A DNA stretch of 64,000 nt from a virus: IMG/VR virus record IMGVR_UViG_3300045921_000191, positions 1 through 64,000 of that record; one strand, given 5' to 3'. The notes beneath the pieces are model-generated. The model worked only from the letters and a program-made list of their open reading frames with translations, had not been told where the DNA came from and did no database searches. The stretch's first letter is position 1. Every line of letters begins with the position of its first letter. Shown here one piece after another: positions 39,886 to 45,822 of the stretch. The position numbers and the translations under genes were made by a program.

Positions 39886-41052
39886 TCAGTCTCCTTTTTG
39901 GTGCTTAGGTTTGATCTCTTTTATTTTATCAAGCGGCTTACCGTTCCAACAGTGATCATAAAATTCACAGCGCCGACCATATTGCATACAGCTATTAGGA
40001 TTTTTAAAGTTAATCTCGTTTTTCACTGCTACTAGAACATTTGAATAGTCTTCCATCTGGGAATCCAGCTCAGACTCTTTCATAGTTTTAGTAAGCAATT
40101 GACAAACAGCTTTTAACTTAGGGATCAAATAAGAGCCTTTACAATCTTTTTGAGTACAATTTCTAGCTTTGCTACCGTGAGGTCGAACGTGTCCGCAAGT
40201 GTCGCAGCTAACCGAGTCGTTCTTCAATTTCTTGACAAGAACAAGGTAGCCTACATCTAATGAACCGATCTTCTTACTAAGCGCTGAAGCGTACGTTTTT
40301 AATTGTTCACTCGTATTGATATTATGGGAAGTATACTCTGCTGCGGCAGTTTTGCAATCTAAAACTACAGGAAACTCTTTACTCTTAAATTTAACTACGT
40401 AATCCACGTATCCGACAATCTCATCGCCGTCGTTATTGGTAATAGAAACTCTATATTGACAAGCAGGGACTCCATCGATCTCTACCAGATATTCAAAATC
40501 TGGCATAATATCATTCCACAATGCGGTCAGCATTAGAGCTGCTCGTTCTGCTAGAGATAGCCAGTGAATTCTTGCATAAAAGCGTTTTCGTTCCAAGCTA
40601 ACTTTATATCCGTTATCGAAGTCTGAATAAATCTCTGCAATAATAGACTGCCAAGTAACTACTTTAGCTTTGCCGTCTTTATCTGGACGAGTAGCGTTAA
40701 ACTCTTCTGGAACTAATTCCGTTGCCCAATCTTTGATAAGATCGGCATGTTGAACCAATAATGACTCGTCTAAGTCTGATTTAAAGTATTCTACTTCTGG
40801 ATTATCAAAAATTGGAGAAGCTCTGGATGGCTGATCTACGTTCTCGGTTTCCCAGTTACGATCAAACTCTGCAATGGAATCTTTCAAATCGGCGCCCTTG
40901 AACATAGCAGTAACGCCCGCCTCGACAGCCGTTCCAAATGCAAAGTACGAGGGACGGCCAGTTGACTGGTACTGTTTTGAAAGATAGTACTTAGTAGGAC
41001 ACGCCTTAAACGTGTTGGCCGCTGAGTAGCTTAATTTGACTGGCTTACTCAT
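39886..41052 (-). CDS. PD-(D/E)xK exonuclease (RecB/Cas4-like)
   Basis: LSYS....KACP.KYY, GYVD, VLDCKT, QL..Y, C.....CEFYDHC. Confidence 0.85.
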   Translation of the reverse strand: MSKPVKLSYSAANTFKACPTKYYLSKQYQSTGRPSYFAFGTAVEAGVTAMFKGADLKDSIAEFDRNWETENVDQPSRASPIFDNPEVEYFKSDLDESLLVQHADLIKDWATELVPEEFNATRPDKDGKAKVVTWQSIIAEIYSDFDNGYKVSLERKRFYARIHWLSLAERAALMLTALWNDIMPDFEYLVEIDGVPACQYRVSITNNDGDEIVGYVDYVVKFKSKEFPVVLDCKTAAAEYTSHNINTSEQLKTYASALSKKIGSLDVGYLVLVKKLKNDSVSCDTCGHVRPHGSKARNCTQKDCKGSYLIPKLKAVCQLLTKTMKESELDSQMEDYSNVLVAVKNEINFKNPNSCMQYGRRCEFYDHCWNGKPLDKIKEIKPKHQKGD

Positions 41053-42713
41053 TCCAGTCCCATCATAGCCAAGGGATTAGGCTTACCTTCGTTTGAGCTA
41101 GCGGCAAGAACTACCGCACCACCCGTGGTTAGTAGTAGGCCAGCAATTGATACTGCGTTCTCAAGAGCAGATTTGGCCACTTTTGCTGGATCAACAATTC
41201 CAGATTCCAAAAGATTGCAAAAGACTTTACGCCTAGCGTCAAATCCTTTGCCAAGTTCAGTCGATCCTAATTGATGAAGGATTACCGCAGGATCAAGGCC
41301 AGTATTAGTAATGATTTGTTTAATCGGTGCTTGAAGAGCTTCTTGCATGATCTTTCCAGCAATCGTATTGGTATTGATTTCTTTTGAAATCTCAAAGAAA
41401 GTCGATCCTCCGCCTGGAAGAATACCTTCTTGAATAGCCACGCGAGCTGCACAAAGCGCGTCCTCGATACGATCTTTTTTCTCAAGCATCTCAAGTTCGG
41501 TCTCACCGCCTGCGCGAATAATAGCAATACCGCCTACAAGCTTACCAATTCGGATACGAAGATTTTCTTGATCGAATTCGTATTGTTTAATCTCAAGGCC
41601 CTTTTTAAGATCATCCACGCGAGATAGAATTGCTTCCTCATCACCTGCACCTTTAAAAATCACAGTCTCTTCTGATCCAACTTCAACTTTATCGCAAGAA
41701 CCTAAATCGTCAGAAGAACCATCTTTTAGTTCTCTAATTCCTTTAGAAAAAACTTTACCGCCTGTAAGAACCGCGATGTCTTCCAAAATCTCAGTGATTG
41801 CATTGGGACTTCCGTCAAATGGAGCTTTGATAGCTACGATTGGAAGTTTACCTTGAACTCGGTTAGCTAGGAGCATGTTCTTTACGTCATCTGAGAAATC
41901 AGAAGCGATAATAAGAAATGGAACTGGTTTTTGAATTTGACCACTTTGAGGGTCAACTTCCATTACACTCATCATGAGTTTTGCAAGCTCATGAAGCTCT
42001 GAAAGTTTGCCGTTATAAAGAAGCACTGCTGGCTTCTCTAGCTGCGCACAGTCTTTAACCTTGTCAGTAACAAAGTGTGTTCCGAATGGTCCAAAAGACT
42101 TCCAGCCCTTTTTGTAGACCGCACCTTGTACGACACTCAACTCAGTATGACGTGAGTTGGCGTCCTCGACTGTAACGTGCCCATCTTCTCCGACTTGCTC
42201 TAGAGCATCGGAAACGATTTGAGCGATCTCTTCTTCTCCGTTCGCGGAGATTTTAGCAACGTTATAAACGTCCTTGAGACCCACTGGGATTTTACGCTCA
42301 TCGATTTTTGCGATGATTTCGTTTTTAATAGCTTTGAGTTCGTCGTAAAGCTGAATACCGTTCATTCCACGAGCGAGTTGCGAATAGCCAGCTTTAAAAA
42401 TAGCTTCGGCAAGTACAATGGCGGTAGTCGTTCCGTCGCCAGCTTGATTTACGGTATTCTTAGCAACTTGAAGAACGGCTTTAGCTATGGTGGACATAGC
42501 GTGATCTTTAAAATCTACAGATTCAGCGACAGTCACTCCGTCTTTAGTAATGAGTGGTCCGATTGGCGAGCCGTCTGAATTTTGCCCAGTGCGCTGGATA
42601 ATAATAGGATTCCCACCTGGGCCTAGGGTCGCTTTAACAACGCTTGCCATCTCTTCTACAGCAGCGAGAGCTTTCTTTTTGGAAGCATCAGAACTGAGAA
42701 TTGTCTTGCTCAT
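41049..42713 (-). CDS. groEL: GroEL-like chaperonin
   Basis: TLGPGG, ITKDGVTVA, AGDGTTTA, KDRIEDA, GIVDPAKV. Confidence 0.95.
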   Translation of the reverse strand: MSKTILSSDASKKKALAAVEEMASVVKATLGPGGNPIIIQRTGQNSDGSPIGPLITKDGVTVAESVDFKDHAMSTIAKAVLQVAKNTVNQAGDGTTTAIVLAEAIFKAGYSQLARGMNGIQLYDELKAIKNEIIAKIDERKIPVGLKDVYNVAKISANGEEEIAQIVSDALEQVGEDGHVTVEDANSRHTELSVVQGAVYKKGWKSFGPFGTHFVTDKVKDCAQLEKPAVLLYNGKLSELHELAKLMMSVMEVDPQSGQIQKPVPFLIIASDFSDDVKNMLLANRVQGKLPIVAIKAPFDGSPNAITEILEDIAVLTGGKVFSKGIRELKDGSSDDLGSCDKVEVGSEETVIFKGAGDEEAILSRVDDLKKGLEIKQYEFDQENLRIRIGKLVGGIAIIRAGGETELEMLEKKDRIEDALCAARVAIQEGILPGGGSTFFEISKEINTNTIAGKIMQEALQAPIKQIITNTGLDPAVILHQLGSTELGKGFDARRKVFCNLLESGIVDPAKVAKSALENAVSIAGLLLTTGGAVVLAASSNEGKPNPLAMMGLE

Positions 42714-42913
42714 TTGTCGCTCGCTTCCTCGACTTTAGTAGGTACGATAGCAGAAGCCATACGGTCGGCCATGGCCTGCATTTGGCGCTCGTTTAGAGTA
42801 TCAACGATGAATTTCTCAAAGTCCTCTACCATACCTTTTCGAATATGTGGAATGCTGCCTTTATTAACTTGCCCGTGAAGAAACTCTAGAACCTTAAGTT
42901 TAATATCTTGCAT
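42710..42913 (-). CDS. hypothetical protein
   Basis: ATGA overlap with groEL; helical, not GroES-like. Confidence 0.6.
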   Translation of the reverse strand: MQDIKLKVLEFLHGQVNKGSIPHIRKGMVEDFEKFIVDTLNERQMQAMADRMASAIVPTKVEEASDK

Positions 42914-42997
42914 ATCTTGCTTTTACACCCTTTCCTGTAGTGCGTCAACAACAATTTTGACAATGACAACTTACGACTAATACGCTAAGCTGATCAT

Positions 42998-44650
42998 GTG
43001 ATAAAGATAACAGTTTCTAACTCATATTGTCAAGTGGAAAACTCGACGACTTTTCAGGATGAGAAGTTTGCGAAGGAATTGTCGTATCTTGATCAGAATG
43101 TTAATTTTCAATACAACAAAAACCTAAGATACATCAAAAGCTTAAATGACAAGATTTCGTCGGATCGTTATAACTCAGCCGCTAAAGTAGGCTTTCAGAG
43201 TGAACTAAAAAGAATGCTATTCTTAACTCGCGAGCTTGAAAAGGCTCGCGTTATCTTTCTTTATAAAAATAAGAAGTTCCCTTCTGGACTTTTGCCCAGA
43301 TTCCTTGACTATTTATATTCTGAAAAAATAGACGTAGAAGTTCTTGACAAACGTAAAAAGCCTAAAACTAATCAAATTAAATTCGTGACTCAAAAGCCTC
43401 TGCCACAACTTCGTTACTGCCAAAAAGATGCCGTGAAACTCGCTGTTAGCGAGGGTCGTGGAATTCTAGTAATGCCAACTGGAGTTGGTAAGACAGTAAC
43501 TGCGGTTAAGATTGTCTGGGAACTAGGTCTTCCTACTTTGTTCGTGGCTCCTAGTAAATCAATTGCTGAAATGATGTTTGACACTATGACTGAGTTTTTT
43601 GGTAAAGGGAAAGTGGAAAAGATCACCTCGAAGACCAAAGTCACTAAGAAGCCAATTGGCATCTGTAATATTCAAGGACTTATCAAGGTTCCACCTTCAG
43701 CCGTGAAACAGTTTCAAGTAGTTGTAATTGATGAATTTCATCATTGTCTAGTAGGTGGGACTAAGCTTTTTACTGATAAAGGGGTAAAAAGTATTAAACA
43801 AGTCTTTGATTTTGAAGAGGAGATTAAAGTATTAAGCTTTGACAAACAAGCCAAGCAGTTTGAATTTAAAAAGGTTTTGAATAAATTTGAATACAACGCT
43901 CCTACCAGCTTTATTAAAATCCATTTAGATAATGGTAAAAAGTTAGTTCTTACAGAAGACCATTTAGTATTAACGAATACAGGTTATAAAAAAGCAAAAG
44001 AACTCAAATGCACCGATATTCTAATCGACGGTAAATATACGTGCTTTATTTGCAATAAAAATTTTGAAGATGAGTGTTCTTTAGGCGGTCATATAGCTGG
44101 GCACTTGACTCCTACGGAAGTTAAATTGGAAAATGCTAAACGAATGCTAGCGAGTCCAAATTGGAATTCAGAAAAGGCTAGAAAATTAAATAGCAAATCT
44201 AAAATGGGTGATAAAAATCCTTCAAAAAGGCCAGAAGTTAGAAAGAAAAAAAGCGAATCTCAAAAGCGCTGGTTTAACTCCCTATCTTCTGAGGAAAAAG
44301 CTTGGAGAATTCAAACATTCGTAAATGCACCACTTCAAGGACTTAGAAAAGGTCCTACCTCTTTGGAAAGAAGAATCATAGAATTAAATATTAAGGATCT
44401 TAGATTTGTTGGAGACGGAAGTTTGTGGTTTAAATCTAAAAATAGATATCTAAATCCAGATTTCATAAAAGGAAATAAAGTTATTGAAGTAGGAGATGTG
44501 GAATTTTGGCATTCACAGGAAGATATAGAAGAAAGAATCAAATTACTAGCTAATGTAGGTCTAGAGTGTTTATATCTCACTTCTGATCAATTAAAATTGT
44601 TAAATAATGATGATCTTAAGAAAGTTGTACAGGAATATCTAAATGGCTAA
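42998..44650 (+). CDS. SF2 (UvsW/DEAH-like) helicase N-extein + N-intein + C2H2 finger/NUMOD3/Vsr-like endonuclease
   Basis: LRYCQ, MPTGVGKT, DEFHH, then CLVGGTKL (intein block A) and LTEDH (block B); PDF....VIEV...FWH. Confidence 0.85.
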   Translation: MIKITVSNSYCQVENSTTFQDEKFAKELSYLDQNVNFQYNKNLRYIKSLNDKISSDRYNSAAKVGFQSELKRMLFLTRELEKARVIFLYKNKKFPSGLLPRFLDYLYSEKIDVEVLDKRKKPKTNQIKFVTQKPLPQLRYCQKDAVKLAVSEGRGILVMPTGVGKTVTAVKIVWELGLPTLFVAPSKSIAEMMFDTMTEFFGKGKVEKITSKTKVTKKPIGICNIQGLIKVPPSAVKQFQVVVIDEFHHCLVGGTKLFTDKGVKSIKQVFDFEEEIKVLSFDKQAKQFEFKKVLNKFEYNAPTSFIKIHLDNGKKLVLTEDHLVLTNTGYKKAKELKCTDILIDGKYTCFICNKNFEDECSLGGHIAGHLTPTEVKLENAKRMLASPNWNSEKARKLNSKSKMGDKNPSKRPEVRKKKSESQKRWFNSLSSEEKAWRIQTFVNAPLQGLRKGPTSLERRIIELNIKDLRFVGDGSLWFKSKNRYLNPDFIKGNKVIEVGDVEFWHSQEDIEERIKLLANVGLECLYLTSDQLKLLNNDDLKKVVQEYLNG

Positions 44651-44786
44651 GATTTTGAAAATAGAAAGAATTGCAAATTCTTACGAACTAGATCAATACA
44701 GAACTCGTCGCATTTATTCTAAAGTATACGATATCGAAGTAGAAAAGAATTCAAATTTTGTTGCAAATGGAATAGTAGTTCATAAC
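43745..44786 (+). mobile_element. naturally split intein with homing endonuclease
   Basis: Cys1 at 43745; IntC 44643-44786 ends VYDIEV..NSNFVANGIVVHN, followed by Ser+1. Confidence 0.85.
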
Positions 44787-45473
44787 TCAGCCGCTGAAAC
44801 ATATCAAGAGGTTAACGAGAAGCTTTTGAACGAGGCCTACTTCCGCATTGGTCTAACGGCCACTAACTTCAGGAACGACGGCGCAGATCTTGCACTAGAG
44901 GCTGTTTTGAGCGAAGTCCTTTATGAATATACGGTTAAGCAAGCTTTTGAAGATGGCTTCTTGGTTAGGCCCAAATTTAACATTATACCTATCTCATTCC
45001 CCTCTGAGGGCAAATATCAGGACGTTTACCGCCAAGGTATCGTTGAGAACGTTCAGCGCAACAGAGTCATCTCAGAGCTTGCTATAGAGCATAAGAAAGA
45101 CTCTGTGATTATTTTAGTTCAACAAATTGAACATGGGGAATTGTTAAAAGGTTTGATTCCAGGTTCAGAGTTTATTAATGGTCAGGAAAAAGACACCATG
45201 CGTCAGAAGGCTATGGCCGACTTTCGTAAAGGAAAGCTCAAGTGTTTGATTGGTACTTCAGTGATTGGAGAAGGTGTTGACCTTCCAATTGCAAACGTGC
45301 TCATCATGGCTGGTGGTGGAAAGGCCAGGAGTCAGATCATTCAGAATATCGGTAGAGTATTAAGACTTTATCCTGGTAAAGATGGTGCTTTGATTTACGA
45401 CTTCACAGATCAAGATGGCTCGTTTCTTCAAGAGCATTCAATGCTTCGTCGTGAAGTTTATTCAGGATATTAA
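44643..45473 (+). CDS. C-intein (48 aa) + SF2 helicase C-extein
   Basis: MAKILKIER...HN|SAAETY; GLTAT (motif III), GEGVDLP (V), QNIGRVLR (VI); AGGA RBS. Confidence 0.85.
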   Translation: MAKILKIERIANSYELDQYRTRRIYSKVYDIEVEKNSNFVANGIVVHNSAAETYQEVNEKLLNEAYFRIGLTATNFRNDGADLALEAVLSEVLYEYTVKQAFEDGFLVRPKFNIIPISFPSEGKYQDVYRQGIVENVQRNRVISELAIEHKKDSVIILVQQIEHGELLKGLIPGSEFINGQEKDTMRQKAMADFRKGKLKCLIGTSVIGEGVDLPIANVLIMAGGGKARSQIIQNIGRVLRLYPGKDGALIYDFTDQDGSFLQEHSMLRREVYSGY

Positions 45474-45773
45474 AAGGTAAGCTATAGCTTTATTTAGAAG
45501 CTTTTCGCTGTCTTTAAACATTCCTAGACCTACGTTGCATTTTCTGCACAATAGGCCTCTAGTTTTGCCAGACTGGCGATTGTGATCTATACAGATCTTA
45601 TCTTTTGGAACAAAATCTTCGCAGATAGCGCATTTTCCTAGCTGAATTTCATACATTTTTTCAAAGTCTTCAAGACTGATCTTATATAGGTTTTTTAATT
45701 TAGACTTCCTGGCAGCTTTGGCTTGCGCAAGCGCAGGACGTTTGGAACACGATTTACACCAAGACTGTAAACC
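45462..45773 (-). pseudogene. 5'-truncated endonuclease VII-type HNH gene
   Basis: Frame open back to GLQSWCKSC, with an in-frame TAA before it and no start; CAIC..IDHNR (DHxH decayed), RGLLCRKCN. Confidence 0.65.
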
Positions 45774-45777
45774 TTAC

Positions 45778-45822
45778 AAAAAGCAAAACCCCCGATCACT
45801 CCTTCCTAGGATGATCGAGGGT
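45778..45822 (-). terminator. intrinsic terminator of the tail operon
   Basis: - strand ACCCTCGATCA...TGATCGGGGGT followed by TTTGCTTTTT. Confidence 0.65.

Follow-up and report, generated by a model that had tools for sequence, protein, structure and literature searches.

A helicase gene of an uncultured phage was found to be divided over two overlapping open reading frames (ORFs) that carry the two halves of an intein, and the arrangement is probably that of a split class-1 intein placed after motif II (DEFHH-S) of the phage's only copy of this repair-type superfamily 2 (SF2) helicase, with a homing endonuclease tethered to the N-terminal intein half (IntN). The gene lies in the window, by which is meant the whole stretch of 64,000 nucleotides (nt) analysed here, the first 64 kb of the 110,655-bp IMG/VR record IMGVR_UViG_3300045921_000191, which has direct terminal repeats and is rated 100% complete. 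As shown in Table 1, ORF1 consists of the N-half of the helicase, IntN, a Cys/His zinc finger, a basic arm and a Vsr-like (EDxHD-type) nuclease, and ORF2 of a C-intein (IntC) of 48 amino acids (aa) and the C-half of the helicase. A first-pass annotation made from the letters alone had arrived at the same reading, which is supported in that everything testable in silico agrees with it; protein trans-splicing, the release of an active IntN-endonuclease and value as a tool are what we infer.

Table 1. Coordinates of the divided helicase gene, its intein and endonuclease, and of in-frame relatives at other loci. Positions without a locus name are those of the window.
Feature	Location	Strand	Description
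ORF1	42998..44650	+	GTG start, 550 aa
ORF2	44643..45473	+	276 aa, reading frame +1 relative to ORF1
N-extein, SF2 (UvsW/RadD/XPB-like) helicase N-half	42998..43744	+	ORF1 residues 1-249, up to motif II DEFHH
N-intein (IntN)	43745..44032	+	ORF1 residues 250-345; Cys1 (block A), T319-x-x-H322 (block B)
CCHH/CCCH zinc finger	44036..44104	+	ORF1 residues 347-369, directly after IntN, in frame, no stop or spacer
Basic helical arm (NUMOD-like SKMGDKNP..RPEV segment)	44135..44347	+	Presumed DNA-binding part of the endonuclease
Vsr-like (EDxHD-type) PD-(D/E)xK nuclease domain	44348..44647	+	ORF1 residues 451-550
Junction	44631..44650	+	AGGA Shine-Dalgarno 44631-44634, ORF2 ATG 44643-44645, ORF1 TAA 44648-44650
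C-intein (IntC)	44643..44786	+	ORF2 residues 1-48; blocks F and G, His-Asn end
C-extein	44787..45473	+	Ser+1 and helicase motifs III-VI, 228 aa and stop
Contiguous intein, zinc finger and Vsr-like endonuclease in frame	L010:389-2830		814 aa
Contiguous intein, zinc finger and Vsr-like endonuclease in frame	L012:4506-7811		1102 aa
Contiguous intein, zinc finger and Vsr-like endonuclease in frame	L019:3834-6812		993 aa
Second fused lineage	L003:4839-7048		IntN fused in frame to nuclease, separate IntC-helicase ORF; same record as L009
Second fused lineage	L004:4803-7099		IntN fused in frame to nuclease, separate IntC-helicase ORF

The interruption of an SF2 helicase right after motif II was borne out, with DEFHH followed by Cys at 43745, matches of the ORF1 N-half to Pfam ResIII (76.6 bits) and DEAD (39 bits) and to PHROG 16 (DNA helicase), and a match of ORF2 to Pfam Helicase_C (57.5 bits). 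Only one helicase of this kind, one intein N-terminal region and one such nuclease were found across the 110,655-bp genome. The GTG start of ORF1 is supported since M(I/V)(K/E)I is the shared start of all homologues. The 8-nt overlap of the two ORFs, ATGGCTAA, was found as annotated, and the AGGA proposed as ribosome binding site of ORF2 is also present, although its distance to the ATG is 8 nt and not 7 nt. In a promoter and terminator scan of 42700-45800 the sites were no more numerous than in shuffled sequences.

Homologues of ORF1 were sought in a set of 5.8 billion proteins and by an exhaustive search of representatives. The former gave four homologues of ORF1 length at 36-44% identity (P0002, P0004, P0006 and P0008), to which the representative search added P0131, and in the alignment all five share with ORF1 the start Met and the terminal residue, ...(F/L)(I/L)xG. 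Clustered at 50% identity, the proteins with this shared end make up six clusters, which stem from Logan and ENA. The ORF2 homologues P0016, P0017 and the translated L021 likewise start with Met-Ala-Lys and have the same long C-intein. At the DNA level L021, a JGI contig whose proteins are about 40-46% identical to those of the window, has the identical overlap, reading AAT GGC TAA / ATG GCT AA in both, with AAGGAG upstream. Each of the window's two proteins is on record from two contigs. Judged from these sequences, the two-ORF break is real, conserved and under selection.

Both halves of the intein were recognised by hidden Markov models well above the cut-offs. ORF1 residues 250-326 matched TIGR01445 with 41.1 bits (cut-off 24.5), in keeping with the annotated blocks A and B, and ORF2 residues 27-49, with Ser+1 next, matched TIGR01443 with 44.0 bits (cut-off 15.6), in agreement with a 48-aa C-intein followed by Ser+1 and the remainder of the helicase. 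C250, T319 and H322 are invariant across the five ORF1 homologues, block B being T319-E-D-H322, and D30, N48 and S49 are invariant in the alignment of ORF2 homologues, where the intein ends in ...VVHN-S. The features of a class-1 intein are thus all present, namely the block A Cys, TxxH in block B, blocks F and G, the terminal Asn, Ser+1 and a conserved host site. The intein is naturally split in that its N and C splicing parts lie in separate ORFs and the break is kept in relatives, and a contiguous bifunctional intein is contradicted by the broken frame at 44643-44650. By sequence search, the solved structures nearest to IntN were the NrdJ-1 intein (8ubs, E 2.3e-4) and gp41-1 (6qaz, E 6e-3). 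When phmmer was run with the C-intein, 6qaz was not among the matches, and the likeness of the IntC start to that of gp41-1, which the first-pass annotation had noted, was not confirmed.

Docking of the two halves was modelled with ORF1 residues 240-348 and ORF2 residues 1-60 on our own alignments. The interface score ipSAE was 0.73, a mark that 58 of 80 solved complexes and 2 of 110 mismatched pairs attained, and the best of three controls scored 0.00. The runs share at least 89% of contacts, the partner has a model confidence (pLDDT) of at least 68, and IntC residues 1-13 and 25-49 touch IntN in the modelled complex. Since the alignments were our own and the pair is similar to solved split inteins, this result may reflect no more than likeness.

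The endonuclease fused behind IntN was analysed part by part. Its zinc finger has C349, C352, H365 and H369 as Cys/His residues; the annotated C2H2 finger holds in so far as both cysteines are invariant in homologues and the model has a beta-beta-alpha shape with pLDDT of about 95, but the Pfam C2H2 matches are sub-threshold (E 0.045-0.18). Residues 346-450 carry a net charge of +11. Of the NUMOD3-like repeat that had been noticed, one basic segment, SK(M/L)GDKNP..RPEV, stands as a conserved block in the homologue alignments, with a weak match to PHROG 12434 (E 5e-4, residues 379-423), but no Pfam NUMOD3 match was found in the basic arm. For the nuclease an alignment of 15 rows was made, which combines the five fused homologues with three contiguous inteins and with free-standing genes and fragments. 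D488, E497, D500, W504 and H505 are invariant in all 15 sequences, position 509 holds either Asp or Glu throughout, and relatives of a more classical kind (L006 and L008) link the nuclease motifs. The catalytic set of EDxHD enzymes (Glu/Asp...His...Asp) is accordingly found conserved. An AlphaFold model of the endonuclease on this alignment had a mean pLDDT of 87.3. In a wide VIA-align search its C-terminal 100 residues (model residues 106-205) matched E. coli Vsr (1cw0, Z 9.8, root mean square deviation 2.2 Å, 92 residues aligned), the catalytic domain of I-Bth0305I (3r3p, Z 9.5, 2.4 Å, 88 aligned) and a DUF559 protein (3hrl, Z 9.9, 2.2 Å, 83 aligned). Foldseek against the PDB with the same model gave nothing at E up to 0.001, 3r3p being third at E 7e-3. 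Taken from modelled fold and motif, the endonuclease is of the Vsr-like EDxHD type; the earlier Vsr/DUF559-like assignment therefore stands by fold, but not by a significant sequence match.

A search for intein-less helicase alleles, as the first-pass annotation had recommended, gave about 80 homologues without interruption, helicases of 430-483 aa whose contigs reach a length of about 124 kb. Closest to the window are P0003 and P0005, with 82-85% identity to the C-extein (P0003 85%) and 68-74% to the N-extein (P0003 74%). The syntenic IMG/VR phage L085, with the order Cas4-like exonuclease, GroEL-like chaperonin, small ORF and helicase, has an uninterrupted helicase of 502 aa with which the joined exteins of the window are colinear, VVIDEFHH-SAAETYQEVN being identical across the junction; the intein-less alleles, too, are colinear there. 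The GC content of the cassette is 0.315 as against 0.376 and 0.427 in the exteins, a sign of foreign origin. In a tree of the C-extein the split alleles (window, P0016, P0017, P0020, L021 and L004) are scattered, the window grouping with three intein-less alleles in a four-row clade (support 98) and L021 elsewhere, in a clade with support 96. Only the placement of true split alleles was used here, and the gene fragments P0051, P0063 and P0069 were not counted as split. Such a sporadic distribution on the tree is the pattern that would be expected of an invasive element.

The motif II codons GATGAATTTCATC at 43727-43739 form a 6-1-6 inverted repeat (GATGAA T TTCATC), which stops 2 nt short of where the intein is inserted; one of its arms has a single-base difference in L085. 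The repeat may be the core of the endonuclease target, and a symmetrical site of this kind would be apt for a dimeric enzyme such as I-Bth0305I.

The proposed course of events is as follows. ORF1 would be made as one chain of helicase N-half, IntN, zinc finger, basic arm and Vsr-like nuclease, and ORF2 would be translated from its own Shine-Dalgarno and ATG overlapping the ORF1 stop, probably by translational coupling. IntN and IntC would then dock, and protein trans-splicing would join the exteins into a helicase of 477 aa (...DEFHH-SAAETY...), leaving as by-product a full-size intein nicked into two chains, with the IntN-endonuclease bound to IntC. The nuclease would most likely cut intein-less helicase alleles of co-infecting relatives, and cutting would copy the whole cassette by homing.

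Two alternatives concern the break itself. A sequencing or assembly indel, the true gene being a single contiguous intein-containing helicase, would be in line with the contiguous inteins with homologous endonuclease (L010, L012, L019), since a one-base indel at the boundary of nuclease and block F would convert one layout into the other. Because six clusters from Logan and ENA stop at the same residue, the ORF2 homologues share their start Met and the L021 DNA has the same stop/start overlap and a Shine-Dalgarno, such an artefact is very unlikely, to the point that it can almost be set aside. Recoding by a programmed +1/-2 frameshift near 44640, giving a contiguous cis-splicing precursor with ORF2 initiation as a minor event, is highly doubtful. 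It would fit the +1 frame of ORF2, the short overlap and contiguous relatives that join at the same place, but CTA AAT GGC TAA has neither a slippery heptamer nor a known +1 shift site, the Shine-Dalgarno and ATG are kept in L021, and in L003/L004 ORF2 begins about 90 nt inside the nuclease ORF, so that a frameshift there would lose the end of the nuclease.

Given a real break, what the two proteins do was weighed in the same manner, and several observations speak against a trans-splicing intein with a mobile, active endonuclease. Charge complementarity of the halves was not borne out, IntN being +3 and IntC +2, in which they differ from many natural split inteins; DNA-level confirmation of the junction comes from one relative only, L021; identities of 36-54% mark the inteins of the various split alleles as old, which gives no sign of recent homing; and the scattered distribution could instead reflect repeated loss. 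For ORF1 residues 380-550 no Pfam match, including Vsr/DUF559, was found at E up to 1, and phmmer of the endonuclease against PDB sequences gave weak C2H2 zinc-finger matches only, with no nuclease and no I-Bth0305I. The lack of complementary charge would suit halves that merely dock as a non-covalent clasp, or a helicase that is a decaying pseudogene, with no splicing in either case, and non-splicing assembly is known for the fractured phage gene Aeh1 NrdA, at least as outlined in PMC3045599. We regard this as unlikely, as Cys1, TxxH, the block F Asp, the terminal Asn and Ser+1 are all found, without variation, in copies of about 40% identity, the helicase motifs are intact in both halves, and the genome has no other copy of this helicase. 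More weight, though still well on the improbable side, is given to a working split intein whose fused nuclease is inactive, being an in-frame remnant or a DNA-binding tether. The lack of a sequence-level match to characterised EDxHD or Vsr enzymes, the age of the inteins and an Asp after CLYLT that is displaced by one residue in the window and P0006 would agree with it. It is opposed by the five residues invariant in 15 sequences that include free-standing genes, with Asp or Glu at 509, by the confident fold of the domain in the model and by the sporadic distribution on the extein tree. A split intein with a tethered homing endonuclease thus continues to be the preferred reading.

In the fractured genes described by Dassa et al. 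(2009; PMC2677866), an extein-IntN ORF ends in a stop and is followed by a spacer of 27-51 nt with hairpin or promoter elements, a free-standing endonuclease ORF and an IntC-extein ORF, the endonuclease end overlapping the IntC-extein start by 6-69 bp in 15 loci. The general statement in the first-pass annotation, that fractured genes typically carry a free-standing endonuclease ORF between the halves, matches this account. As in gp41-1, NrdJ-1 and IMPDH-1, a phage gene of DNA metabolism is broken by a split intein in the window, all parts have the same strand, the intein halves flank a Vsr-like endonuclease, and the 8-bp overlap of endonuclease and IntC falls within the published range; the window IntN is moreover detectably related to the NrdJ-1 and gp41-1 inteins. 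The window differs in having no stop, spacer or separate endonuclease start, as IntN (to about residue 345) leads directly into the zinc finger (from 347), and two ORFs replace the three of Dassa et al. The layout is a real and conserved variant of the known fractured-gene arrangement, and since it is a single frame on the 5′ side and broken on the 3′ side it is best called a half-fractured, or 3′-fractured, intein. A literature search of incomplete coverage, by which absence is not proven, found no description of a natural split intein with its N-intein fused to its endonuclease.

The nearest cultured counterpart is the uvsW gene of the T4-like Salmonella phage S16 (Gelderlandvirus; locus L001, NC_020416.1 104626-107352), where a split intein likewise interrupts a UvsW-type SF2 helicase at this motif II site. 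It has the classical three ORFs, namely gp114 (UvsW_N, ResIII and IntN), gp114.1 and gp115 (IntC and Helicase_C), of which gp114.1 is a separate NUMOD3-bearing nuclease gene, annotated as hypothetical, with overlaps on both sides; no relation between its nuclease and that of the window could be detected. The prototype of EDxHD homing endonucleases is the dimeric I-Bth0305I (PMC3239194), and enzymes of this type were first seen in fractured genes (PMC2677866). I-Bth0305I and E. coli Vsr share the fold and the Asp/Glu/Asp/His set with the window nuclease, and I-Bth0305I is likewise bipartite, its DNA-binding arm being N-terminal and its nuclease C-terminal. It is however intron-encoded and free-standing with NUMOD repeats, whereas the window enzyme is fused behind an N-intein and starts with a Cys/His zinc finger. 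Vsr-like endonucleases have, according to a 2025 preprint, so far been reported only with split inteins (10.1101/2025.01.02.630785).

Relatives with other layouts were found for the endonuclease when the best 150 representatives of its family were sorted into classes with local hidden Markov models. About 60 clusters among these were contiguous IntN-endonuclease-IntC forms and about 50 were endonuclease only; in 13 the protein ends right after the nuclease with IntN upstream, and two have the mirror form endonuclease-IntC (e.g. P0173, with a helicase C-half). The contiguous inteins in the metagenomic loci L010, L012 and L019 are inserted at motif II, DE(C/x)H, of three different SF2 helicases and have the same order as the window, IntN, zinc finger(s), basic arm, Vsr-like nuclease and IntC, with nucleases 31-34% identical to that of the window. 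They are single ORFs and cis-splicing, ...F(I/L)xNH running directly into the block F strand, whereas the frame of the window breaks exactly at this boundary of nuclease and block F. Free-standing versions of the endonuclease with several zinc-ribbon repeats were found in L011, L014 and L020. ORFs of 85 aa in L030 (4965-5219) and L031 (287-541) hold nothing but the nuclease core and have 59% identity with the window across 44-46 residues. They could be remnants, or free-standing forms reduced to a minimum.

At the allelic site of a UvsW-like helicase lies a second fused lineage (L003/L009 and L004, on IMG/VR and JGI contigs), which like the window has IntN fused in frame to a nuclease and IntC in a separate ORF. 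Pfam assigns its nuclease to the classical DUF559 type (28.7 bits, cut-off 20.6); a zinc finger is lacking, and ORF2 of this lineage starts, with AAGGAGG and ATG, within the nuclease ORF in another frame, as opposed to the zinc finger and the 8-nt overlap of the window. The 13 nuclease-ending clusters take in the helicase family and also P0142 and P0160, which combine a large-terminase-like N-domain with IntN and nuclease, and P0173 and P0266 consist of nuclease and IntC; these four are known as proteins only, and DNA for P0142 and P0160 was looked for in IMG/VR and not found. From their protein sequences, the half-fused layout may occur in large-terminase genes (P0142, P0160) and the mirror layout in P0173 and P0266. 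In a tree of the endonuclease the five split forms stand apart from the contiguous and free-standing ones (99/98 support). The earlier suggestion of an intermediate between contiguous and fully split inteins thus gains from the fact that the same endonuclease occurs both as an in-frame part of contiguous inteins and free-standing, but the tree gives no direction of change.

A tentative generalisation, slightly less likely than not, is that half-fractured inteins (IntN-endonuclease / IntC, and the mirror IntN / endonuclease-IntC) are a widespread natural class with no description in the literature searched, stable and selected intermediates that stand between contiguous bifunctional and three-ORF inteins, in several host genes (SF2 helicases, perhaps also large terminases) and with two or more types of nuclease. 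If so, the homing enzyme would borrow the expression signals of the host gene and exist after splicing as a two-chain nicked intein, and half-fractured inteins would be a source of new orthogonal trans-splicing pairs. In the model of Dassa et al. endonuclease genes that invade inteins either fracture them or turn into in-frame domains (PMC2677866); a form that is in frame at one side and broken at the other would be the missing half-step and renders the model testable. It would also mean that a homing endonuclease can forgo a promoter and start codon of its own while the split of the host gene persists. As candidate orthogonal trans-splicing tools, the halves offer a Cys1/Ser+1 pair akin to NrdJ-1 and gp41-1, of which natural variants with about 40-60% identity exist. 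A tblastn search of the endonuclease against 50,697 deposited phage genomes gave no match, nor did blastn of the locus against deposited phages, and the data point to a zinc-finger-guided Vsr-like nuclease lineage without counterpart in the genomes searched.

The surroundings of the helicase were also inspected. Upstream, at 39886-42913, the opposite strand encodes a Cas4-like exonuclease and a GroEL-like chaperonin of full length, together with a small ORF; the order is the same in the intein-less L085 (209-3258). Downstream, a 64-aa ORF of the endonuclease VII family (45462-45656, minus strand; Pfam PF02945, 62.7 bits) is convergent with the helicase and overlaps its last 12 nt. L085 has a different plus-strand gene at this place, and the 64-aa ORF may be a small free-standing mobile nuclease.

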